NCBI GenBank assembly: GCA_032128395.1
Contig: JAQBGV010000193.1
Span: forward strand, 7,764 to 71,763
Direction: 5' to 3'
Source of the DNA: Planctomycetota bacterium
Lineage (GTDB): Bacteria > Planctomycetota > UBA8108 > UBA1146
DNA length: 64,000 bases
Part shown: piece by piece, positions 5,660-46,414 of the stretch
Numbering within the stretch: position 1 is the stretch's first letter
Layout: each line of letters starts with the position of its first letter
Program-made: the position numbers and the translations under genes
Notes under the pieces: model-generated
What the model saw: the letters and a program-made list of their open reading frames with translations, nothing else
What the model was told of the DNA's origin: nothing
Database searches by the model: none

Positions 5660-8223
5660 TCAGGGACAGGATGGATAGAACGCGCACCCCACTCCACCGG
5701 CCACCGCTCCGCAACTCGGGAACGGCGGGGCGGGAGGAGGTCCGCCCGCGAAGAGATAACCGAGAAGGTTGATCGGGTCGCCGATCGTCAGAGCACCATC
5801 GACACTGATGTCCCCCGATTCGAGGCAGTCGAGCGGTGACCCGAGGAAGATGTACGACAGGATGTGGACCACGTCCCCGATGTCCGGACTCCCCGTCCCG
5901 TTCGGGTCTCCGCGGCGGAACGAAGTCCCGGTCGGCATCGGCGACTCGACGACCCGGAGCGCGTTCGCGTACTTCCCGCGCCAGGGGTTTCCCGAATCTC
6001 CGTCGTAGGTGCAGACGAGTCGTACCTCTCCGTCGCTTCCCGGATCGACCTCGATAAATCGAGCGACGTACCCCGCAGGGTTGTCGGATGGGAGCCGGGT
6101 GGAAGGATCCCCGGGGCCCGAAAAGAGAGCACCTCCCGAACCGGGTTCCGGGTTGTCGATGCCGACCGAGCTCGCATTCAAGAATCCGATCGAATCCTCG
6201 AGGGTGACGAGCACCGCGCGGTCCCATCCGTAGTAGTTGCGATGTCCGTAGAGGACGAGGTCGTAGCGCGACGAGGGATCGAGCCCGGTCAGGATCAAGC
6301 GGAGGTCTCCCGTCGGCGACGGGGAGGCGATGTACGAAATGCAGCCGTGGGCGGTGACGTGCCCGTCGAACACATCCCAAGCGTCGACCCCCGGGAGCGG
6401 CCCTCCGCTCAAGTCGAGGGCGTGGTCGCCTCCATCGTACGTCCCTCCTTCGACGGTCAGAGTCACGCCGGTGGCGAGTCCGGAGGCTCGGTCGACGAGC
6501 TCGCCGCTCGAAGGAAATCCACTCCCGCCGATCGGCGAGGTGATCTTGGTGATGTTCTCATCCCGCTGACCCAGCCGCCATGCGAGGTCGTTGAACGCGA
6601 TGAAGCCCCCAGCGCTCGCGGGGAGGAACTGCGCGGTCACCGGCGCATCGGCGCTCAAGGTCACCATCGTCGTCGACATGATTCCGGTCACCGCGCCGGC
6701 CCAGCCGTCGAAGATCCACCCTGGCGCGGGCTCGGCGGTGAGGGTGACCGTCTGGCCGTCCTCGTAGAGCGGTCGGTCGGGGGTCCGACGGATACGACCG
6801 CCCCCCTCGATCGTCTCGACGATGCGGTGGATCGCCGCCCCCTTCGAGATCACGAAGCGATCGGTGACGCTGCTGTCGATGCGCACGTTCTCGAGCCAGA
6901 GCAGGTCGCCGTCGACCCGGAGCAGACAGGAGCCGTGTTCGATCTCATCGAACGCCATCGCCGGATGCCCCCCGTTGCCCCCCGTCTCTCGGCCACCGTG
7001 ACCGCCGACGACGTACACCGCGCCGTCCGCGACGAGCCCCGGGGTCTTGGTGTATGCGCCGTCCCCGTTCGGATCGCCGTCTCCCGAGTCGAAGACGTGC
7101 CCGTCTGCGATCAGGACCGGCGTCGCGGGGGTCGCGAAATCAGGGGAAGTCCCATATCCGTGCGCACCGTCGATCAGCATCGAACGTTCGTAGCCGTGCG
7201 AATGCCCCGACAGGACCAAGTCGACCCCGCCCGCTTCCAGGATCGGAACGACCTCTTCGCGAGCGAGTACCAATCTTCCCCCGGAGTCGGTGCCGTCGTT
7301 CGAGTCGTGCGACCCCTTCGTGTACGGCGGGTGGTGGAAGAACACGACGACCCAGTCGGCGAGGGTGCTCGCAAGGTCTAGGGCGAGCCAGTCGAGCATG
7401 TTCGACGGGGGCTCCAGATCCCCCTCGGCGGTGTCGATCGAGATGAAGTGCACGTTCTGGTGGTCGAAGGAGTAGTACGCGCGCGTCCCCGACGCCACCC
7501 CGCCGAGCTCCCCCGCGGTCGGCAGCACGAATGCTTCGAAGTACGGCCCGAACTGCGTCGCCGAAGTGGAACTGCTCGCATCGTGGTTCCCCATGGTCGG
7601 CCAGATCGGGCTCCGCCGGAGGATCTCTCCGTAAACGTCGAAGAAATACTCGGTGTACTGCTGATCGGTGCCATTCGAATACGCGATGTCTCCGACGTGG
7701 ATGAACAGGTCGGGGCCGGCACCCTCGGTCGCGGCGAACATCGCGTCGCGGACCGCGAGTTGATTGTCGTTGCCGTCTCCGGAGTCACCGACGATCCAGG
7801 CGCTGAACGGAAAGGCGGTTCCCGCGGGGAGCGGAGTGGTGAAGCGGTACGCCGATGTCCCCCCCCCGATGACGCCGCCGGTCGCGGTACCGAATTGGTA
7901 GTAGTACGTGGTCCCGGGGGTGAGGCCGGTCAGTGTCACGGTGTGATCTCGCTCGCTCAAGTTCGACGGGGGGACCGCGACCGTGCCGGTCACCAGGGTC
8001 GTCAGCGATGCGGGGTCGGTCCCGTACTCGACGATCGGGTCGGTCGGGAAAGTGTCGTCGACCCGCCAACGAACGAGCACCGAGTCGGGGGAGAGCTGCA
8101 GGAGGTAGGCGTCGCGGATCAGCGGCGGGCCCGCGTCGACCGGCGTGATCCCGACGAAGACGATGGAGAGGAGCGCGGCCGTGAGCCCCGAACGAATCGC
8201 GTGGATCCTGCGGTGTGTGTTCA
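5660..8223 (-). CDS. secreted purple-acid-phosphatase-like metallophosphoesterase with C-terminal dockerin-like module
   Basis: Signal peptide MNTHRRIHAIRSGLTAALLSIVFVGITPVDA. Metallophosphatase motifs GDSGDG, GDIAYSNG, GNHD and FHHPPYTKGSHDS. C-terminus has DIGDVVHILSYIF...DISVDGALTIGDPINLLGYLFAGGPPPAPPFPSCG. ATG 8223-8221 overlaps the upstream stop (ATGA). The track N-terminus (to 9250) is Arg-rich read-through. Confidence 0.8.
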
Positions 8224-9285
8224 TCCCGAACGGACCTCCCCCCCGCGCGCATCGGTCGGGGTGTCGGCGGGGGGAGCTCCTCGCGACTCGATCTCCTCGA
8301 GAAGCTCCGCGACCCCGGCGAATTCGGGGGCGAGGCGTTTCGCCTCCTTGGCATCGCGGCGGGCACCTTCGGGATCCCCGAGGTCGAGCAAGATCCTCCC
8401 CCGGGTGACGAGATGCATCGGGATCCGGCGACGGGCGAGGACGCGATCCGCTTCGGCGAGCGCGGCTCGGAGTTCGATCAGCCGTCGCGGCTCGTTCCCG
8501 GCCGCTTCGTAGACTTCGGCCCGCCGGACGAGCCAGCTCGTTCGAACCGCAGCCCGGGAGAGCTCGGCGTCGATGAGCGAAAGCGCGGTCTCGTACTCGC
8601 CGCGGGCGATCTCGACGGAGATCCACGCGTCCTTGACGAGCAGTGAGTCTCCGAGGGTTTCGAGCGCGTTCTGATAGCCGCGGGCGGCCTGTTCGAGTGC
8701 ACCCTGCTCGGAGAGCAGTGCCCCGCAGCGCAGTGCTCGATCGACACTCGGGGCGAGAGTGAACGAGCGGGTCACGTCGGCGATCGCAGCTGCGAGCTCG
8801 CCCGCGCGAACGTGGAGCGTTGCGCGTGCGTCGAGCACGGCGGCAGCGCGGTCGGGAACCGCCTCGATGACTCGGTCGAGCAGAGGGGCCGCCTCGTCGT
8901 CGCGCTCGAGATCGACGTAGCAGAGCGCTCGCTCCAGGGGCTCCTCCCACGGGGCGAATGGGGACGGTCCCCCATCGGCGACGATCGTCACCGCGAGATC
9001 GCGTGCACGGTCGCAGTCGGCGAGAGCTTCGGCGGGTTTCTTGTGAAAGCGGAGGAGTCGCGCGCGGAGCAGATGGAGATCCGGCCGCGGCGTGGCCGCG
9101 GACTCGATCTCGGCGGTGACCCGCTGGATGTCGACGTGGGCACCGTCGTGGGCCGCCAGGGGGCCCGTGGTGACCCCGAACAATATCGAGAGGAGCATCA
9201 CTGGCACCGAACTTCGCAGATGCCGTTCGAGGACGGGTCGATGAACGCAAAGCCGCGATTTCATCGGCGCGACAACTCCGGTCAA
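8221..9285 (-). CDS. TPR-repeat protein with N-terminal signal-anchor
   Basis: TPR-like Ala/Leu-rich helical repeats and a hydrophobic stretch VMLLSILFGVTTGPLAA. TTG start at 9285 with a GAGGAG SD 5 nt upstream. The stop overlaps the phosphatase ATG. Confidence 0.55.
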   Translation of the reverse strand: MTGVVAPMKSRLCVHRPVLERHLRSSVPVMLLSILFGVTTGPLAAHDGAHVDIQRVTAEIESAATPRPDLHLLRARLLRFHKKPAEALADCDRARDLAVTIVADGGPSPFAPWEEPLERALCYVDLERDDEAAPLLDRVIEAVPDRAAAVLDARATLHVRAGELAAAIADVTRSFTLAPSVDRALRCGALLSEQGALEQAARGYQNALETLGDSLLVKDAWISVEIARGEYETALSLIDAELSRAAVRTSWLVRRAEVYEAAGNEPRRLIELRAALAEADRVLARRRIPMHLVTRGRILLDLGDPEGARRDAKEAKRLAPEFAGVAELLEEIESRGAPPADTPTDARGGEVRSG

Positions 9286-9636
9286 GTCGGCTCCTCAGTG
9301 ATCCGGACCCACCGAATCGCGTTTGCAGGTCACGACCCAGTCTCGTCTACGGGCATAAACCGCCCGCGAGCAACGAGTTAAACTGCCTCTATGGTACCTC
9401 CACGGGGGACCTGCGACACCGAGCATCGCCGGCAATTCCACAAACTTGCTGGGATGCCGGACTTAGCAGTCCGTAGAAAGTGTGCTTCCGATCCGAAAGA
9501 TCGACTCCTCAGACGGGCGGTGACCCCCGCGCACCGCGAGTACACCCACCCCCTTCGTTCCCGTAGGGTCAGGGGTCATGAAGAAGAGGGCGGGCACGCA
9601 CTGCGAGCCGACCCCGACGGATCTTCGGTTTGCCGC

Positions 9637-9665
9637 CGAACGGATCCGAGCTCCGGACGTCCTAT
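9637..9665 (+). promoter_or_regulatory. candidate ECF-type promoter (CGAAC-N16-CGTCC) upstream of the ECF sigma gene
   Basis: The pattern CGAACggatccgagctccggaCGTCCTA lies ~55 nt upstream of GTG 9721. GGAAC/CGTC-like spacing is typical of autoregulated ECF sigma promoters. Pattern match only. Confidence 0.25.
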
Positions 9666-9720: not shown

Positions 9721-10245
9721 GTGATACAGGTCTATCCCTGGTCAGAGGAAGCGCTCGCGTCGCGCCCGAGCCTCGTCTCCGCCGCGCGACGCGTGGTCCG
9801 AGACGCGACCGAGGCGGAGGACGTCGCCGACGAGGCGATCGCCCGGCTCGCCGCCGCCACCGCGGCCGGGGAGTCGATCGAATCCGTCGCGGGGTGGCTC
9901 CACCGAGCGGCGCTCCGGATCTCGGTCGATCGAGCGCGCGCCTGGGTTCGCCGGCGGCAGGAAGGTTGGCGTCACGAGGCGGCGCGCCGACCCACTGCAC
10001 CGGACCCCGAGCGAGTGCTCGAAGAGGTCGAGACGCGGGAACGACTGTGGCTCGCGGTGCTCGAGCTCCCCGACCGGCAGCGCGACGCGGTCGTGCTCCG
10101 GCAGATGGACGGGCGGAGCTTCCGCGAGATCGCGGACCTGCTGGAAATTTCCGAAGCGACCGCTCGGGGTCACGTGCATGCGGCGCGAGCGACGCTCCGG
10201 CGTACGCTGTGGGACCTCGATCCGACGGAAGGGCGAGGACGATGA
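9721..10245 (+). CDS. ECF (group 4) RNA polymerase sigma factor
   Basis: Sigma-70 region 2 (EAIARLAAA...WLHRAALRISVDRARAW) and region 4 HTH (LELPDRQRDAVVLRQMDGRSFREIADLLEISEATARGHVHAARATLRR). GTG start at 9721 after GGGGAG. The stop overlaps the next ATG. Confidence 0.8.
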   Translation: MIQVYPWSEEALASRPSLVSAARRVVRDATEAEDVADEAIARLAAATAAGESIESVAGWLHRAALRISVDRARAWVRRRQEGWRHEAARRPTAPDPERVLEEVETRERLWLAVLELPDRQRDAVVLRQMDGRSFREIADLLEISEATARGHVHAARATLRRTLWDLDPTEGRGR

Positions 10246-10727
10246 TCGAAGATTCTCGGCTCGAGTCGCTCATCCAGCGCAAGCTCGACGGGGAACTCAG
10301 CGATGCCGAACGAGTCGAGCTCGCCGAGGCGATCGCGAACGACCCCACCGCCTGCCGTCGACACGACGAATTCGTCGCCCTCGAGGGGCTGCTGTTCGCG
10401 GTCGGTCGCTCGGACCGCCCCGCGCTGGAGCCCGATCTCTCGCCCTTCGCCGACGATGGGGCGGTCCCGGATGAAGAGGAATTCCTGGGTTCCGCGGTGG
10501 GACTCTCGACCATCTTCGGAGCTCTCGCCCTGGCGGCGATCCTGTGGATCGGATCGATGTGGGTACCTCCGTCGCCCACGGCGCCGCCCGTTCGCGAAAT
10601 CGCTGCCCTCGAAGTCTGCTCCCTCTCCGACGGGTTCCTCGCGGTGCCCGGGGAGAGCGCGAATCCCGACATCCAAATCGTGTGGATCTACTCGCTGCAA
10701 CAACCCGCGGAAGGGAACGTACGATGA
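10242..10727 (+). CDS. anti-sigma factor (single TM segment)
   Basis: ATG 10242 overlaps the sigma stop (ATGA). N-terminal anti-sigma-like helix with Cys/His (ANDPTACRRHDEF) and a TM segment LSTIFGALALAAILWIGSMWV. Confidence 0.55.
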   Translation: MIEDSRLESLIQRKLDGELSDAERVELAEAIANDPTACRRHDEFVALEGLLFAVGRSDRPALEPDLSPFADDGAVPDEEEFLGSAVGLSTIFGALALAAILWIGSMWVPPSPTAPPVREIAALEVCSLSDGFLAVPGESANPDIQIVWIYSLQQPAEGNVR

Positions 10728-11671
10728 ACCGAGTCTCTCCGGCTCGACTGCTCGCAGGATCGGCCCTCTTCTTCTTCGCCGTCGCTTCTCCTCTCATCGC
10801 GCAATCGGACCCGGGCGCCATCCCGCGGCGCGAGGCACTGCGAGTGGTGGCCTACCCCCTCGAATCCGCAAACCCCGACGAGACCCAGAATCTGCTCGAG
10901 TCGCTCTTCCACGGAGATGGGCCGCTCGTGCGGATCACGAGTGACGCACGGACCAACACCGTGATCGTGTATGCGCCGGATTCGGTCCACACCCACGTTC
11001 GGGATCTGATCGGGACGCTCGATCGCCCCGTGAAGCAGACGCAAGTAGAGATGGAGACGGAGACGAGGGTCCTCATCTTCCAGCACATCACGGTGGACAG
11101 CCTGCGCCCAGTGGTGCAGCTGCACAACGTGCAGATCGCGACCAACGCCGCGACGAACAGCCTGATCGTGCGCGGCAAGACAGTCGAGATCGAACGTGTG
11201 GTCCAAACTCTCAGAGCCATCGATGTCGAGACCCCCTCGGTCGAACTCGAGTGCTGGCTTCTCGAGTCGGGCAGGGGCACGCAGATCGGGGATCATGTGG
11301 AGTTGAAGGGACTCGCTCCGGAGCTCGCGCGCGCGGGCCTCGAGGGGTTCGGAGTCTTCAGCCACATGGCGGTGCGCAGCCTCGCCGGGGAAAAGTTCGA
11401 CTCGAGTCAGAGCTTCGTGAACCGCCGGCTGCGGAACATGGCCCTCGGGGGAGTCGTACGGCTGGTGGACCAGGGCAAGACCGCGCAGATCGGGATCGGG
11501 ATCTCGATCTCGATGCAGCTCGATGAACTCGTGGACTCGAAGTCCTCGGGCAGCTTTCAACTGAACACCGAGCTGAGCACACAACCGGGCAAGTTGGTGG
11601 TCGTCGGCCTCGCCCCGACCGGGGACGAGAGTGCAAAGCCGCTGGTCCTGGTGCTGCGGGTGAAGAAGTAA
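10724..11671 (+). CDS. secreted protein with two secretin-N (NolW-like) type domains
   Basis: Signal peptide MNRVSPARLLAGSALFFFAVASPLIAQS. Two repeats show the secretin_N pattern (TNTVIVYAPDSVHTHVRDLIGTLDRP and NSLIVRGKTVEIERVVQTLRAIDVE). ATG 10724 overlaps the anti-sigma stop (ATGA). Confidence 0.45.
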   Translation: MNRVSPARLLAGSALFFFAVASPLIAQSDPGAIPRREALRVVAYPLESANPDETQNLLESLFHGDGPLVRITSDARTNTVIVYAPDSVHTHVRDLIGTLDRPVKQTQVEMETETRVLIFQHITVDSLRPVVQLHNVQIATNAATNSLIVRGKTVEIERVVQTLRAIDVETPSVELECWLLESGRGTQIGDHVELKGLAPELARAGLEGFGVFSHMAVRSLAGEKFDSSQSFVNRRLRNMALGGVVRLVDQGKTAQIGIGISISMQLDELVDSKSSGSFQLNTELSTQPGKLVVVGLAPTGDESAKPLVLVLRVKK

Positions 11672-11711: not shown

Positions 11712-11797
11712 GAGGGACTGTCCCGACGGCGGTCTGCAGAGCGGCTGCAGAGAGCTCAGCGCGGCCGCGCTGCAATCGACCGTCGGGACAGTTCCTC
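11712..11797. repeat. palindromic intergenic element, family B (GAGGGACTGTCCCGACGG ... CCGTCGGGACAGTTCCTC)
   Basis: Inverted arms at 11712-11729 and 11780-11797. The interior contains CTGCAGAG x2 and a perfect palindrome AGCGCGGCCGCGCT. Homologous copy at 27106-27174. Left-arm-only copies at 20564-20586 and 55875-55898. Confidence 0.7.
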
Positions 11798-39485: not shown

Positions 39486-40229
39486 TCAATCCCCGTTCGG
39501 TATCTCCACCCCGAGGGTCCGCAGCGACTCCTCCGCCGCGGACTGCTCCGCTTCCTTCTTGTTCTTGCCGGAGCCGTGGCCGAGCTTTCGCTTGCCGAGC
39601 ATCGCTTGCACCGTGAATTCCTTCGAGTGGTCGGGGCCGTGCTCGGAGATCACTTTGTAGGTCGGAGTTCGGTTCTCCTCTTTTTGCAGATGCTGCTGCA
39701 GGAGCGACTTGAAGTTCAAGGGGTGCTGATTCCGCTTCACCGCGATCACCTGGTGATACAGGTTGCGGATGCAGAACTCGCGCGCCTGTTCGAGCCCGCC
39801 GTCGAGGTAGATCGCCGCCACCACCGCCTCGAAAACGTTCGCGAGTAGAGATGGCGGCAGCTTGCGACGGTTCGTCACCCCCTTGCCGACCTGGAACGCC
39901 TCGTCGAGTCCGAGGCGTTCGCTCTCGGCGGCGAGGGTGGCCGTCGAGACGACGACCGACTTGATCTGGGTCAGCTCTCCCTCGGCGAGGTCGTCGAAGA
40001 AGTTGAAGAGGAACTCGGTCATCACCAACCCCAGGACGGAGTCGCCGAGGAACTCCATCCGCTCGTTGCAGGGGTTGTCGATCGTCTTGATCGATGAGTG
40101 CGTGAGGGCCTGGAGGAGATGTTCGGGGTCGCGGAAGGTGTAGCCGACGCGCTGCTCACACACCTCGAGGCGTTTGAGGTCCTCCTGAGGGATGTGCTCG
40201 TGCTCGAAGCTCCGCGGACCTGCCATCAC
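39486..40229 (-). CDS. rnc: ribonuclease III
   Basis: RNase III signature ERMEFLGDSVLGLV, catalytic EAVVAAIYLDGG, and a C-terminal dsRBD with GSGKNKKEAEQSAA. Confidence 0.88.
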   Translation of the reverse strand: MMAGPRSFEHEHIPQEDLKRLEVCEQRVGYTFRDPEHLLQALTHSSIKTIDNPCNERMEFLGDSVLGLVMTEFLFNFFDDLAEGELTQIKSVVVSTATLAAESERLGLDEAFQVGKGVTNRRKLPPSLLANVFEAVVAAIYLDGGLEQAREFCIRNLYHQVIAVKRNQHPLNFKSLLQQHLQKEENRTPTYKVISEHGPDHSKEFTVQAMLGKRKLGHGSGKNKKEAEQSAAEESLRTLGVEIPNGD

Positions 40230-40659
40230 CTATCCTGACGGGGCTGACCCGGGGCGTTCCGGGGGCCACGACCCGGAGGGGACGTTCCGACGGCGGTCCG
40301 AGGCCGGGGTCTCTCCCCCCATGGGAAGGGGCGCCGGCGCCGCACCGGGAACTCCTCCGGGCAGTTCTTTTTCTATCGGTCGCCGGGAGTGGGTGGACCA
40401 GCGCAGCGGAGCGATTGGGGTCATCACGGCGGGAAGGGGAAACCCCGTACGTCCGAACGGAACGGGGGCTCCCCTTCACGCCGGGAAAGCCACCCAAGAT
40501 GCCCACCGCGGGCCGGAAGCCCTTCCAGGCGAAGAACTTGGAGTATATCGATCGAGCCCCTCCCGGAGCAAGGGCGCCCGAGGAGTGTGCCCGAAGATGC
40601 GGTGCGATGGCCGCACATCGATTCACGCGGTACAAACGGCCCTCTCGGAAGGAGAGACC

Positions 40660-41871
40660 GTGAATTTCCCCCCGAATCCGCCGCTCCCGCGTCCGTCGAC
40701 GTCCTCGGGCGCTTCCGGCAAGGCCGGGTCGACGCGCTCCGCTCCCGCCGTGTACCCCGTCGGGGGACATGTCCTGTCGATCTTCGATCTTCTCGCCCGG
40801 TTCACCGAGACCGCCTACATGGTCGATGGCATCTCTCGGCTCTCCGACCTGCACCTCACCGTCGGCGAACCGATCCGGTACCGCTTCGATGGCGAGCTCG
40901 TCACGCTCCCCGACGCATTTCCCGTCACGCCGGAGATCCTCGAGCAACTGCTCGCCCCGATCCTGAGCGAGGAGCAACTGGCTCGGCTCCGGTCGAGTAC
41001 GCAGGAATCGGTCGATGCCGGCTTCGAGTGGGCCGAGAGGGCGCTCAGCTTCCGGATCAACGTCTTCCACGATCGTCACGGACTCGCGTCCGCGATCCGC
41101 GTCCTCCCCCGCAGCATCCCACCCCTCTCGGGAATCGGGTTCCCGGATGAGTCGGTGTGGCGGGAGATCGTCGACCTCTCCCAAGGTCTCGTCATCGTGA
41201 CCGGGGTCACCGGAAGCGGGAAGTCGACGACGATTGCGAGCATCCTGCAACACATCAACCGCAACCGAGGGGCTCGGATCATCACCCTCGAGGATCCGAT
41301 CGAGTACGTGCTCGACAGCGAGAAGGCGCTCGTCTCCCAGCGCGAGCTCGGCCGCCACCTCTCGAGTTTCTCGGATGGTCTGCGCAGCGCCCTGCGCGAA
41401 GACCCGGACGTGATCTTCGTCGGCGAGATCCGCGACCGGGAGACGGGGTCACTCGCTCTCACCGCGGCCGAGACCGGACACCTCGTCCTGACCACGCTCC
41501 ACACCCGCGACACTCGAGGGGCGATCACTCGGCTCGTCGACCTCTTCCCCGCGGAACGAACGAAGGAGCTGAGCACGCAACTCTCGTTCGCGCTCTCGAC
41601 GATCATCGGGCAGAAGCTGGTGCCGAACGCCGTAGGGGGAGGCCGACGCGTCGCGATGGAAGTCCTCAAGAACACGCCTTCGATCGCGCACCTGATCCGG
41701 AGCGGCAAGTGGGAGCAGATCTACACGACGATCGAGACGCAGCGCGCCGCGGGGATGATCACGATGGAGCGGCATCTGATGTCGCTGGTCGAGCAAGGGA
41801 AGATCACGAGGGAAGCCGCACTCCACGCGGCGAACACCCGGTCGCTGCTCGCATTCCTCGGCGAAAAGTAG
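40660..41871 (+). CDS. pilT: type IV pilus retraction ATPase PilT/PilU family
   Basis: Walker A GVTGSGKSTT, Walker B/Asp box PDVIFVGEIRD and His box LVLTTLHTRD. GTG 40660 has a perfect AAGGAG SD 5 nt upstream. There is a ~40-aa N-terminal extension before the conserved core. Confidence 0.85.
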   Translation: MNFPPNPPLPRPSTSSGASGKAGSTRSAPAVYPVGGHVLSIFDLLARFTETAYMVDGISRLSDLHLTVGEPIRYRFDGELVTLPDAFPVTPEILEQLLAPILSEEQLARLRSSTQESVDAGFEWAERALSFRINVFHDRHGLASAIRVLPRSIPPLSGIGFPDESVWREIVDLSQGLVIVTGVTGSGKSTTIASILQHINRNRGARIITLEDPIEYVLDSEKALVSQRELGRHLSSFSDGLRSALREDPDVIFVGEIRDRETGSLALTAAETGHLVLTTLHTRDTRGAITRLVDLFPAERTKELSTQLSFALSTIIGQKLVPNAVGGGRRVAMEVLKNTPSIAHLIRSGKWEQIYTTIETQRAAGMITMERHLMSLVEQGKITREAALHAANTRSLLAFLGEK

Positions 41872-42018: not shown

Positions 42019-45000
42019 TCAATGACTCACCAGGATCGTCACGTCATCGTCGACGATCTCGGCTCCGAGATGGATCGACCATCCCCCCGGGCCGCGGGAT
42101 ACGGCCTTATAGGGATAGAAGCCGGGGCTGAGGAGCGGAACGACGAGGCGGGCGCGGGCGCGAAGGGCGATCGTTCCGTCGGTCCGCCACTCTCTTCCCC
42201 GCCACACCCACCGCGGCAGCTCGATCCACGCGTCGGGGTCGTTCAGCACCGACTCGCCGAGCTGAAAGATCAGGTCGTACGCGTCCCTCTCGATCTGGAT
42301 CGGATCGCCGCCGAGCAGTTCTCCCCCCGAGAGCGGGATGGGGCGCGCGGTCCCGACCTCGAAATCGAGCGTGTGCCTCGATGCACTCTGAGGGATGAGC
42401 GAGATACAGACCGTCGAGGCGCCGGACGGCAGCGGGAGTTGCACGCGTCCGTTCCGGACGGGGGCGGCGCGGAGTCGGCCGGGGTCGCTCGGATCGTCGG
42501 TGACGATCGCAAAGCCGCTATCGAGAAGTTTCCCGTTCAGTCTCGCGATCGCCGGGCGGAAGTCCGCGTCGATCTCGAGGCGCAGATTCTTCCGGAACCC
42601 GGGGATCACGGCGGTCTCCGCGCTCGGCCCCACGATCCCGGCGGGGAGCGCGGTAGGTCCCCAGTCGAGTTGGTAGCGCCCGGGTCGCACGTCCCGGTAG
42701 GTCGTCGGCTCCCGCGTGAGGATCTCTCCCAGGTCGATCTTTCCCTCTTCGGGATCGTCGGAGATGAAGGAGAGCCGGAAGCGATCCTGCAGCGGGTCGG
42801 ATCCCGATCCTTGACGGATCGCGGCGATCACGAGCTCGTTCCCGTCGGCGAGGAACAGCGTCGCGGGAGGACCGTCGAGGTCTACGGGAGAGAGCACCGC
42901 CGGCGTCGATCCGGGCATCTTCGCGACGAGGGCGAGCACGGCATTCCGATCGATACCCGTGAGGTCGATCGAGAAGACTCCGCCGGCGCCCGACTCGACG
43001 CGTCGGCGGATGTTCCTGGGATCGAGATCGCGCCCCGGGTACCGATGTGCCGCGCTGGGGTGCATGAGGACGACCTCCGCCCCCGCGGCACCCTCCCCGC
43101 CATCGAGGAGCACCACTCCCTTGAGCGTGCGGCGCTCCTCGAGGAAGAAGGGCTCCGCTTCGTTCTCGCCGGGGGCGAGGTCGAGAATGACGACGGTCGC
43201 GGTCGCGGTCGAGTCGTGTCGGATCTCGCGGATGTGGATGCCGGACGCGAGCCCGCCGACTTTGAAACGGCCGTGATCGAGCGAGAAGGGGGCGGTCTCT
43301 CCGTAGCGGATCGTCGTGCCCTCGGGCCATTCCTTCCCCGCGGGGGCGACGATCGGGATCACCCGGCCGGTCCCGTCGAGACGTCGCTGACCGAGATCGC
43401 GGAGTTCCGACGCGAGACTCGCCGCTCTCACGAGCTGGATCGGTCGGGTGATCTCTCCCCCGGCGGGAACGGTCACGTACATCGGGATCCTCTCGGAGGT
43501 AGGAGGCTCGACGTGAATGCGATTCGGGACGTCGTACACCGTCTCGATCAGATAGATCCCCGCCCCGAGCTCCTCTCCTCCGGACGGGGTTCCCTCCCCG
43601 AGGTTCGGATCGATCGGCGTCGAGGTGACCAGTGCATTCGCGACAGGCATGCCCGAAGCGCTCAGCACCGTGACGATGACTTCGTTCCGCTCGGCCGCGG
43701 GGAGCTCGATCATCGCCTCGGAGAAACGTCCATCCACCGTGACCACGAGCGGGTAGACGCCATCCTCCTCCTCGATGCTCTCCCAGTGCAGCGCGTACTC
43801 ACCGGGGAGCAAGAACCGTGCTTCGAGGTAAGGGGGTTTGCCGATCGGGAACTGCCGGACCAGATCGACCACCTCGTGATCGCGGTCCTGGAACCCCTCG
43901 AGCCACGCCTCGGGGGGAAGGGTCGGACCGGCGCCCTCGATCCGGAAGTAGAATCGCGCGACGCGCGGCTCGGTCGGAGCGAGGGTCCCTAGCATCACGT
44001 ATCCGGGTTCGGTCCGACCGCGCGGCTCTGCATCGGCGAAGAGGGCGCCGCTTCCGAGCGCGAGCGCCTCGAAGAGTCGTGCCCCTTCGACCCAGTCCTC
44101 GGACCCGAAAGTTCCATCCGGGGCCAGGCGGTACGAGGCGCGGATCACCGGGTCCTGTTCGTCCCCGCGACGGATCCGTTCGATGATCCGGTAGCGCGGG
44201 GTCTCCCAGGGGGGGATGCCGACCACTCGCCCCGTGGTGATGAAGCGATTCGCGTCGGAGGTGAAGAGCGGGATCGCCAGGCCGACGTCGGTATCTTCGT
44301 TGGCCAGGCGAAACTCGCCGTGAACTTCGGTGATCCAGGGTCCGGTCACTCGGAAGCGATAGAAGCGCATCGGATCGAGCCCTCCGACCAGGGCCCGCGA
44401 CCCACCCGAAATCGGGGTTCGGAAGCGTGAGGCGGCGAACTCCTCCCCCGAAATCTCGAGGACCGCACCTTCGAGGTCGGATGGTCCGACTCCCGAGAGC
44501 AGCACCGAGACCGCGTCGCGAGCGGGCACGACCAAGTCACCGAGGTCGAGCGTGGTCGCCTGGTCCGACCGCGCGGGGGTGATCACCTCGACGGGGGCCG
44601 CATCGCGCGCGGCCACGATGAGGCGCTGCCCTTCGGGTGGGAGCTGGCCGACGAACTCGGCGTAGCCTTCCCGGTCGCGGTGCACCGAGGTCAGGTCGGC
44701 GGAGATCCTGACTTGCTCGGCGGGGACCGGTCGCGGCTGGTTCTGGTCATCGAGCTGGACGAGACGCAGGGAGAGCCGCGGGGCGGGGCGCCCGTCGAGC
44801 CAGAGTCGACTCGGGTGCCCGGGGATGAAGAACTCGCGCGACGCATCACGAAAGGATGCATCGAGGACCCTCAGGGTCACGACCTTCGGCAGGTCGACGA
44901 GCTGGGGGGCTTTCGGTTCGCGCTCGGCGACTCCGAATCGGAAGGACCCCGCCAGGTCGGTGCGTACCCGGAAGGTGCGGGCATTCTCGCGGATGGTCAG

Positions 45001-46182
45001 CTCGATGGTCGTGAGCGCGACCGGATCGCCGTCCGCATCGACGAGCTCGAACGTCTCGATCGTCTCCGGAACCAGATGGAGCGTGTAGATCGGAACGGGG
45101 GTCCCGGTCGCATCCACTCCATCTTCATCCACTTCCCCGGCCCACATCGGGCGCGGCAGCCAGTGCGGGTACGGCACGATCAGAGGGTCGATCAACTGGA
45201 GTTCTTCGACCCCGTGAATGTACGTGATTCGACCAAAGGCATCGGTGGTCCTCAGCGCGACCTCCTCGTTCTCGAGGCGGAGCAGGCTCGGACCCTCTTC
45301 GGGGAGGTACGGATCCGCGCGTCGCCGGCTGCGCACCGTCGCACCTGGGAACGGGTTCCGATCCCCATCGACGAAGAAGGTCTCCGTGAGCCAAGTGCGC
45401 CTGAGGGGGATCCGCAGGAACGGCCACTCCCCGCCGAGGGTGCACTCTTCTTCGACGAGCGCGACGCCGGGCGCAAACTCCTCGGCGACGACCTCGACGC
45501 GGATCCGCGTCCGTGGGTCCTCGGGTCGGAACACGGGGATCTGGAAGCGGCCGCTCGGATCGGTGATCGCCTCGACCACCGCCTCGGGCGAGAACGCTGG
45601 ATACCCGTTCGGCTGATCGCTGAATGTGATGCGGAGCGCCGCTCCGGTGATCGGGGAACCGGTAGCCGCATCGACGACGACCCCCGCGGCCTGGAGATCG
45701 ATCGGAGGGCGAGTCGGGGATGGACCACGACCGGGTCGATCGAGGATGGTCCCGGGGGGGATGCGCGTCCCGTCGATGAACACGCCCCGGCCGCCGACTA
45801 TGATCTTGTCGCTTCCGAACCGGAGGTCGGACCCGGCGGGGATCCCGTACGGTCCAAAGACACTCTCGGTGGTCGCCCGCACCTGCAACTCACCCTCGTC
45901 GAGGATCGGCACCCCTTCCTCGAAGTGAAAGGTCGATCCCGGTTCGACCTCGACGACGAGACCCGGTTGCTCGATCGAGAACCCGGTCGGAGTGAGATAA
46001 CCGCCGTCGTCCGTTCGCTGGACCTCGCCATCCAGATAGCTCCACCCTTCGACCGTGATCAGCGTGGTGCGTGGGGAGGGGGCGACGCGGCGATCTTCGC
46101 GGGTGGTCAGGGCGATGAAGAGGATGGCGCCGACCGTGACCGTGGATCCGAGAACGAGCGCAACGATCCGAGGTGCGGACAT
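42019..46182 (-). CDS. very large (1387-aa) membrane-anchored hypothetical protein, beta-rich, no recognisable domain
   Basis: Start MSAPRIVALVLGSTVTVGAILFIALTT (N-terminal TM anchor), then ~1350 aa of non-repetitive, ordinary-composition sequence. The + strand 700-aa ORF here is an Arg-rich antisense artefact. Confidence 0.6.
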   Translation of the reverse strand: MSAPRIVALVLGSTVTVGAILFIALTTREDRRVAPSPRTTLITVEGWSYLDGEVQRTDDGGYLTPTGFSIEQPGLVVEVEPGSTFHFEEGVPILDEGELQVRATTESVFGPYGIPAGSDLRFGSDKIIVGGRGVFIDGTRIPPGTILDRPGRGPSPTRPPIDLQAAGVVVDAATGSPITGAALRITFSDQPNGYPAFSPEAVVEAITDPSGRFQIPVFRPEDPRTRIRVEVVAEEFAPGVALVEEECTLGGEWPFLRIPLRRTWLTETFFVDGDRNPFPGATVRSRRRADPYLPEEGPSLLRLENEEVALRTTDAFGRITYIHGVEELQLIDPLIVPYPHWLPRPMWAGEVDEDGVDATGTPVPIYTLHLVPETIETFELVDADGDPVALTTIELTIRENARTFRVRTDLAGSFRFGVAEREPKAPQLVDLPKVVTLRVLDASFRDASREFFIPGHPSRLWLDGRPAPRLSLRLVQLDDQNQPRPVPAEQVRISADLTSVHRDREGYAEFVGQLPPEGQRLIVAARDAAPVEVITPARSDQATTLDLGDLVVPARDAVSVLLSGVGPSDLEGAVLEISGEEFAASRFRTPISGGSRALVGGLDPMRFYRFRVTGPWITEVHGEFRLANEDTDVGLAIPLFTSDANRFITTGRVVGIPPWETPRYRIIERIRRGDEQDPVIRASYRLAPDGTFGSEDWVEGARLFEALALGSGALFADAEPRGRTEPGYVMLGTLAPTEPRVARFYFRIEGAGPTLPPEAWLEGFQDRDHEVVDLVRQFPIGKPPYLEARFLLPGEYALHWESIEEEDGVYPLVVTVDGRFSEAMIELPAAERNEVIVTVLSASGMPVANALVTSTPIDPNLGEGTPSGGEELGAGIYLIETVYDVPNRIHVEPPTSERIPMYVTVPAGGEITRPIQLVRAASLASELRDLGQRRLDGTGRVIPIVAPAGKEWPEGTTIRYGETAPFSLDHGRFKVGGLASGIHIREIRHDSTATATVVILDLAPGENEAEPFFLEERRTLKGVVLLDGGEGAAGAEVVLMHPSAAHRYPGRDLDPRNIRRRVESGAGGVFSIDLTGIDRNAVLALVAKMPGSTPAVLSPVDLDGPPATLFLADGNELVIAAIRQGSGSDPLQDRFRLSFISDDPEEGKIDLGEILTREPTTYRDVRPGRYQLDWGPTALPAGIVGPSAETAVIPGFRKNLRLEIDADFRPAIARLNGKLLDSGFAIVTDDPSDPGRLRAAPVRNGRVQLPLPSGASTVCISLIPQSASRHTLDFEVGTARPIPLSGGELLGGDPIQIERDAYDLIFQLGESVLNDPDAWIELPRWVWRGREWRTDGTIALRARARLVVPLLSPGFYPYKAVSRGPGGWSIHLGAEIVDDDVTILVSH

Positions 46183-46414
46183 GTCGGGACCTCGCTCCAG
46201 GGTGGGTCGGTCGATACGCTCGGTCGCGCTGGGTATTCGGTTCATTCACCGACTTGGGCTCAGCGCCCGATGATGAACCGTTGCCGCTCAACCTCAAGGG
46301 ATCACCCAGGTTGGGCGATTCTTCCGCGAGTCACCCAACGGGGGTGGCCCGGAACGGGGACGGAAACGAGCCCGGGGGGTACTCTCCGATGACCGCCCTC
46401 AGGAAGGACACCCC

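Follow-up and report, generated by a model that had tools for sequence, protein, structure and literature searches.

Pairs of an extracytoplasmic function (ECF) sigma factor and an anti-sigma factor that work with a third partner, such as RseB or the signalling domain of FecA, are the best models of how envelope signals cross the inner membrane. RseB and its counterpart MucB bind the periplasmic domain of the anti-sigma factor and block its site-1 cleavage. The transducer of cell-surface signalling, an outer-membrane protein, has an STN domain that resembles secretin N; through beta-sheet extension this domain binds the periplasmic domain of the anti-sigma factor and protects it against proteolysis for as long as no signal has come (PMC11637429). 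Here we describe a three-gene operon at positions 9721-11671 of a 64,000-nucleotide (nt) stretch of DNA from a member of the Planctomycetota (assembly GCA_032128395.1, contig JAQBGV010000193.1, positions 7,764 to 71,763; this whole stretch is called the window below), in which an ECF sigma/anti-sigma pair is joined by a dedicated third component, a shortened protein of the secretin superfamily that we call the mini-secretin. Secretins are, to our knowledge, known so far only as large outer-membrane export channels. The conservation of the triad suggests an undescribed envelope-signalling trio, and we propose that the mini-secretin may act as the extracytoplasmic partner of the anti-sigma factor.

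The three genes lie on the same strand and fill the interval, as read from the sequence:
9721..10245, plus strand: ECF sigma factor gene, 174 amino acids (aa), GTG start with GGGAAGGGGAG just before it
10242..10727, plus strand: anti-sigma factor gene (putative), 161 aa
10724..11671, plus strand: mini-secretin gene, 315 aa

They are linked through two ATGA overlaps, which an earlier note on this DNA had described and which a direct reading bears out: at 10242-10245 the TGA of the sigma gene (10243-10245) overlaps the anti-sigma ATG at 10242, and at 10724-10727 the anti-sigma TGA (10725-10727) overlaps the ATG of the third gene at 10724, whose length of 315 aa and end at 11671 were likewise given correctly. 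A purine-rich stretch resembling a Shine-Dalgarno sequence stands ahead of each internal start, within the preceding gene. Across the related loci compared, nine of ten sigma/anti-sigma junctions are ATGA overlaps, and nine of eleven junctions between the anti-sigma gene and the third gene are ATGA or TGATG overlaps. The arrangement is beyond chance: it recurs at every related locus, with overlaps at most junctions. ATGA overlaps are, however, ordinary operon punctuation, and a third one (8221-8224, minus strand) couples the divergent neighbouring TPR gene to a phosphatase gene; such overlaps thus imply co-translation in one operon and no fixed stoichiometry. The earlier description of the third protein as stoichiometrically coupled to the anti-sigma factor therefore reads too much into a common feature, and both triads of one related locus (L002) have gaps at that junction, of 28 and 58 nt.

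The triad resembles two described classes of system and belongs to neither. Like FecI-FecR-FecA, FoxI-FoxR-FoxA and PupI-PupR-PupB, the genes of which are often adjacent, it brings together an ECF sigma factor, a single-pass anti-sigma factor and a third, exported protein that has secretin-N-like domains. In systems of the FecIRA type, however, the anti-sigma factor has a FecR domain and a tail of about 220 residues, whereas the tail here has 53 residues and no FecR domain; and the third protein here lacks the STN domain, the plug and the TonB-dependent barrel, having instead Secretin_N domains and a truncated core. Searches of genes 2 and 3 with Pfam and NCBIfam models gave no match to FecR, STN, Plug or TonB_dep_Rec. 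The gene order (sigma factor, anti-sigma factor, periplasmic partner) is that of RpoE-RseA-RseB and AlgU-MucA-MucB, but the fold of RseB and MucB is unrelated to that of the mini-secretin, and the same model libraries detected no RseA_N, RseA_C or MucB_RseB domain in the triad. The statement in the earlier note that this is not a described signalling module agrees with our literature search, which found no ECF group, pair or signalling module with a secretin-like partner (the supplements and two planctomycete ECF surveys lay outside its scope) and no description of secretins as short as these; the word secretin does not occur in the main text of the ECF classification paper.

The mini-secretin family is very rare, and its sequences are metagenomic only. 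A search among 5.8 billion clusters yielded 13 proteins of 310-328 aa, namely the window's own and 12 relatives at 33-57% identity, and an exhaustive profile search added one further full-length representative; against genomes, a single-protein query matched nothing and an alignment query matched one contig of a metagenome-assembled genome. The homologues agree in length and domain order, and 32 positions are invariant among them. The third gene has an anti-sigma gene directly 5' of it in all nine other family members with readable upstream DNA (such DNA was available for L001, L002, L004-6, L008, L009, L010/11, L014 and L015/16), and a sigma gene precedes the anti-sigma gene in each of the seven loci that extend that far. 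The third gene thus stands beside the sigma/anti-sigma pair wherever its context exists, the point on which the earlier note had proposed to check its reading. The flanks vary, with CBS and SulP genes in the window, L001 and L008, an acetyltransferase gene in L004 and an FKBP gene in L002; since flanking genes differ among distant loci, it is the triad that forms the conserved unit.

At L002 there are two complete tandem triads, each with its own sigma factor, anti-sigma factor and mini-secretin, which is the pattern expected of cognate partners. The third gene of the first of these encodes a 303-aa paralogue that scores above the Pfam Secretin cut-off (33.6 vs 27.5 bits), and the small family of this paralogue (4 proteins), used as a profile, finds phage pIV as its best solved-structure match. 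A triad of sigma factor, anti-sigma factor and short secretin of this paralogous subfamily occurs again in L012, giving two loci (the first triad of L002, and L012). The two mini-secretin subfamilies are barely alignable (profile comparison, E 0.08), and they diverge both in the anti-sigma tail and in the N-terminal half of the third protein. The tandem triads (L002 1-6933) stand beside a third ECF sigma gene, which overlaps a gene for a Ser/Thr kinase with TPR repeats, so that the region is a cluster of ECF regulators.

The third protein divides into four parts:
10724-10801, plus strand: signal peptide, residues 1-26, read from the sequence
10838-11020, plus strand: N-domain 1, residues 39-99 (PF03958)
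11057-11221, plus strand: N-domain 2, residues 112-166 (PF03958)
11237-11665, plus strand: truncated secretin core, residues 172-314 (C-domain model, Foldseek)

By eye, the N-terminus looks like a signal peptide, with basic residues, a hydrophobic core and the end ...LIA/QS. The two Secretin_N domains reported in the earlier note are present: PF03958 matches twice (E 1e-18), and the structure model contains two beta-alpha-beta-beta-alpha domains. The full-length AlphaFold2 model, built from a 13-sequence alignment, has a pLDDT of 79; its C-terminal domain is built from a single helix plus eight strands, of which several reach 11-17 residues, and in a Foldseek search of the PDB the full model matched full secretins in alignments that extend through the secretin domain. 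Residues 168-315 were also modelled separately, to exclude the pull of the N-domains on the matches. This C-domain model (pLDDT 86, pTM 0.81) finds only secretins among its best 25 PDB matches (MxiD, InvG, PulD, GspD/EpsD/XcpQ, PilQ, pIV and RcpA), with probabilities of 0.95-1.00, query TM-scores of 0.42-0.58 and E-values down to 3.6e-4; the alignments run over 190-270 columns for a query of 148 residues, which means that long stretches of the targets are unmatched. A GspC/PilP-type identity, which the earlier note had named as an outcome that would count against its reading, was ruled out, as every strong match is a secretin. On these models the third protein is a mini-secretin, with two domains of the ring-building N type and a shortened core, rather than a bare secretin-N protein. 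The claim that it has no secretin pore domain accordingly fails for ancestry and fold, given that the C-domain model matches secretins only among its best 25; for function it may hold, because the short core and the lack of a Pfam Secretin match make a pore spanning the outer membrane doubtful.

Secretins such as GspD, InvG, PilQ, RcpA and pIV have 400-750 aa, against 315 here, and their hallmark is a 12-15-mer channel in the outer membrane. The mini-secretin shares with them the Secretin_N domains (N2-N3) and the core fold, but it has neither an N0 nor an S domain and no linked secretion genes. Two anchors from HMMER place it on solved secretins. The family profile aligns significantly with N2, N3 and the first core strand of GspD and XcpQ (E. 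coli GspD 194-362), the Secretin_N stretches corresponding to GspD 194-345; it aligns weakly, and in the same register in three secretins, with a second stretch that includes GspD 497-546 and XcpQ 471-522 (the Pfam Secretin domain spans GspD 433-595). Between these anchors there are about 66 residues in the mini-secretin and 135 in GspD (~69 fewer), and after the second anchor 16 as opposed to about 49 (~33 fewer), so that the core, at ~145 residues against ~250, is about 100 residues shorter than that of GspD. In solved secretins, the ~70 residues that follow the first strand, up to the Pfam domain, form the membrane-facing lip. The pieces missing from the mini-secretin would be this lip segment (~70 residues), the tip of the gate hairpin and the KVPxLGDIPxLG motif. 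The most conserved stretch of the C-domain, KLVVVGLAPTG, is placed by the weak profile alignments at ...VV.GGL of GspD and XcpQ. The third protein gives no match to Pfam Secretin (PF00263) even at E<=1; hhalign aligned nothing between the core and E. coli GspD, and a global alignment of the two reached a z of 1.1 against shuffles, which is not significant. Because the direct comparison of core and GspD is not significant, the assignment of the deleted parts depends on the two HMMER anchors, the lengths and the reading of the motifs.

When the mini-secretin profile was run against a library of 1.84 billion proteins, the best matches were giant proteins (P0014-P0159), 1,500-5,500 aa in length, in which 11-44 Secretin_N-like stretches were counted. 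One of them, P0095, has a full Secretin domain together with N0/STN and 16 Secretin_N stretches, which makes it a giant secretin whose periplasmic stalk is very long.

The product of gene 2 can be divided as follows:
about residues 6-58 of the 161-aa protein, plus strand: N-terminal anti-sigma domain (putative, weak profile homology)
10491-10565, plus strand: single transmembrane helix, about residues 84-108 (hydrophobic span)
10566-10724, plus strand: predicted periplasmic tail of 53 residues (109-161), C-terminal to the hydrophobic span

Its N-terminal part is helical, and in the alignment every homologue has one hydrophobic span. Matches to zf-HC2 stay below the cut-off of 22.2 bits (E 0.058 for the window and 0.0059 for L002; four of the nine homologues match). 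Among solved structures, a profile of the nine homologues matches B. subtilis RsiW best, in its anti-sigma domain (5wuq_C, E 0.0013), and M. tuberculosis RslA third (3hug_B, E 0.28); a protein search with this profile, which was saturated by common words, returned 4 proteins. Gene 2 resembles RsiW, of the SigW-RsiW pair, in this weak match of the N-terminal domain and in the single-pass topology, and differs from it in that the zinc ligands H-x3-C-x2-C are not conserved among the homologues, the extracytoplasmic part is much shorter, and a dedicated partner is co-encoded. On its position, topology and weak homology, we accept gene 2 as encoding a probable class-I-type anti-sigma factor. The tail carries a conserved, two-strand-like motif, LEV..LS.G..AV...DP.IQ[IF][VI]W, and with only 53 residues it seems too small for sensing alone.

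Gene 1 encodes an ECF (group 4) sigma factor: it has the sigma2 and sigma4 regions only, falls in the size class of about 170-200 aa and matches the ECF models. The matches to Pfam Sigma70_r2 (PF04542), r4_2 (PF08281) and Sigma70_ECF (PF07638) are all above the cut-off, and TIGR02937 scores 71.8 bits against a cut-off of 42.9; no specific NCBIfam equivalog was matched. Public data include a gene call for exactly this 174-aa product, with the GTG start. A longer open reading frame from ATG 9391 would span the promoter described below, and as that promoter would then lie inside it, the GTG start at 9721 is favoured.

Upstream of the sigma gene stands one transcription signal:
9636..9661, plus strand: ECF-type promoter (predicted), -35 CCGAAC (GAAC at 9638-9641), 16-nt spacer, -10 CGTC (9658-9661)

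This 26-nt element, CCGAACG[GA]A...C..C[CG]GG[GA]CGTC, lies 60 nt 5' of the GTG, recurs in register 5' of the sigma gene in L001, L004, L008 and L010, and is the only invariant block of the five aligned intergenic regions. The pattern GAAC-N16/17-CGTC is usual for ECF promoters and typical of autoregulated ECF operons. A position weight matrix built from the five sites and scanned over the 64-kb window and all flanks gave one promoter per locus, scoring 34-36, and at most 14 elsewhere; there was no second copy in the window or the flanks, including the region before the TPR gene, so any other targets would be located in other parts of the genome. The operon's own product most likely activates it through this promoter, and the position of the conserved element before the sigma gene implies that all three genes would be induced together. 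No sigma-70-like promoter and no T-tract terminator was found.

How, then, might the three products work together? We hypothesize that the ECF sigma factor would be held at the inner membrane by the single-pass anti-sigma factor, and that the mini-secretin, exported through the Sec system, would bind the anti-sigma tail, probably by addition of a beta-strand to one of its N-domains, and thereby control the access of the site-1 protease to the tail. An envelope cue would lead to release and cleavage of the tail, intramembrane proteolysis would free the sigma factor, and the freed sigma factor would drive its own promoter and further targets. The structures of the genes, the identities of the domains, the fold and the conservation of synteny and promoter come from the data; that the two proteins touch, which way control runs, the proteolytic steps, the signal and where the mini-secretin resides are what we infer. 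To the central proposition, that the mini-secretin serves the anti-sigma tail as its extracytoplasmic partner and controls anti-sigma proteolysis, we give a probability of roughly 0.45; the earlier note had suggested such a sensor or partner, and we find the suggestion plausible. It draws on the strict synteny, the duplication of the triad as a unit, and the short tail with its conserved motif, taken together with the established binding of partners by secretin-type N-domains through strand addition; cell-surface signalling is its nearest worked precedent, and RseB/MucB the other analogue. It is also consistent with the overlaps at nine of eleven junctions before the third gene, with the predicted joint induction of the three genes, with the fact that the tail of the anti-sigma factor and the N-terminal half of the mini-secretin both change between subfamilies, and with the absence of adjoining secretion-system genes that would give a secretin-like protein a conventional job. 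No genes for assembly of type II (T2SS) or type III (T3SS) secretion systems, type IV pili (T4P), Tad pili or phage adjoin the triad in the window or at any locus. More specifically, and more tentatively, a degenerate secretin may have been recruited as an extracytoplasmic sensor or transducer in place of a TonB-dependent transducer or RseB, gating anti-sigma proteolysis as a ring or as a monomer, in which case the trio would form a new three-component class of envelope signalling. If the link is functional, a secretin has been reused for signalling, which would surprise specialists; the family would also offer a minimal secretin core of ~145 residues for the study of folding and assembly, and a new ECF group whose regulon could be sought by means of its clear promoter motif.

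Several points weigh against the mini-secretin being a partner of the anti-sigma tail. The domains are of the Secretin_N (N1-N3) type and not of the STN/N0 type of cell-surface signalling; the anti-sigma label of gene 2 depends on sub-threshold similarity and position; the two L002 triads are gapped (28 and 58 nt) rather than overlapping at the junction of the anti-sigma gene and the third gene; and the family is tiny, its approximately 17 sequences being too few to quantify co-variation. Moreover, co-transcription with the sigma/anti-sigma pair fits a regulated product equally well. The mini-secretin could in that case be the output of a pair that senses something else, a small ring, ungated conduit or periplasmic scaffold with a structural or export job. 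The sole ECF promoter copy in the 64 kb and the flanks drives this operon, which makes the mini-secretin the one visible non-regulatory target, and the C-domain retains a secretin-like sheet with long strands, with KLVVVGLAPTG falling at a conserved position of GspD and XcpQ. Yet none of the loci has a gene for a substrate, an ATPase, a pilin or a pilotin linked to the triad, a core so much shorter than that of GspD and missed by the Pfam Secretin model makes a membrane-spanning pore doubtful, and the 53-residue tail would be left with no evident sensor. We regard such an output role, the main rival reading, as rather unlikely.

A variant of the partner idea would have the mini-secretin report on outer-membrane or secretin assembly, the system being silent while the protein is targeted and oligomerised, and the response being switched on when free protein reaches the tail or the protease. 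A secretin-derived fold that lacks linked machinery, tight co-expression with the anti-sigma factor and a conserved exported TPR protein next door would all suit this arrangement, TPR proteins being assembly factors of secretins in pilus systems. It is purely speculative, however: the TPR protein has no lipoprotein signal, its gene is absent from L002 and was not identified in L012, and the data do not separate such a reporter from simple partner binding. We consider it improbable, and to cast the TPR neighbour as a pilotin would be speculation. Least probable by far is that the third gene is a functionless, decaying relic of a full secretin; the truncated domain does escape the Pfam Secretin model, and its core shows no significant pairwise similarity to GspD (z 1.1), but thirteen homologues at 33-57% identity keep the length of 310-328 aa, the domain order and the 32 invariant positions, the start overlap and the synteny are conserved, and the structure model is confident. 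The mini-secretin as extracytoplasmic partner of the anti-sigma tail is our leading reading.

Around the operon, two further features can be placed:
8221..9285, minus strand: gene for an exported TPR protein, 354 aa (Pfam TPR), divergent from the operon
11712..11797, no strand assigned: inverted repeat with 37-nt arms (81% complementary) and a 12-nt loop, 41 nt past the last stop

The TPR gene lies divergently upstream in the window and in L001, L008, L004 and L010, with identities of 52-59%. Its product matched only generic TPR structures, and a match to the PilW model (E 0.005) is far below the cut-off. We regard this gene as a conserved neighbour rather than an established part of the module. 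It is followed by a gene for a secreted, purple-acid-phosphatase-like metallophosphoesterase with a dockerin-like C-terminus (5660-8224), and the pair is also found in L004. The inverted repeat sits between the convergent mini-secretin and CBS genes and could serve as a bidirectional terminator or belong to a repeat element; Rfam gave nothing real in the long intergenic regions. Between the TPR and sigma genes, intergenic regions of roughly 500 nt in L004 (4295-4845) and L010 (2808-3286) share blocks, for example GCTGGCYGAATATAGCCGAAG and CTCCCGAACCTTGGGGGGGG, which are absent from the window and have no Rfam match. Directly 3' of the mini-secretin gene, on the same strand, a DUF6265 gene occurs at L009 (2035-2556) and L014 (1275-1793), and not in the window. 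Farther away in the window, 28 kb from the triad, there is a lone gene for a T2SSE-family ATPase (40192-41871), the only one of this type, downstream of which a 1,408-aa CarboxypepD_reg protein is encoded on the opposite strand (42019-46245).

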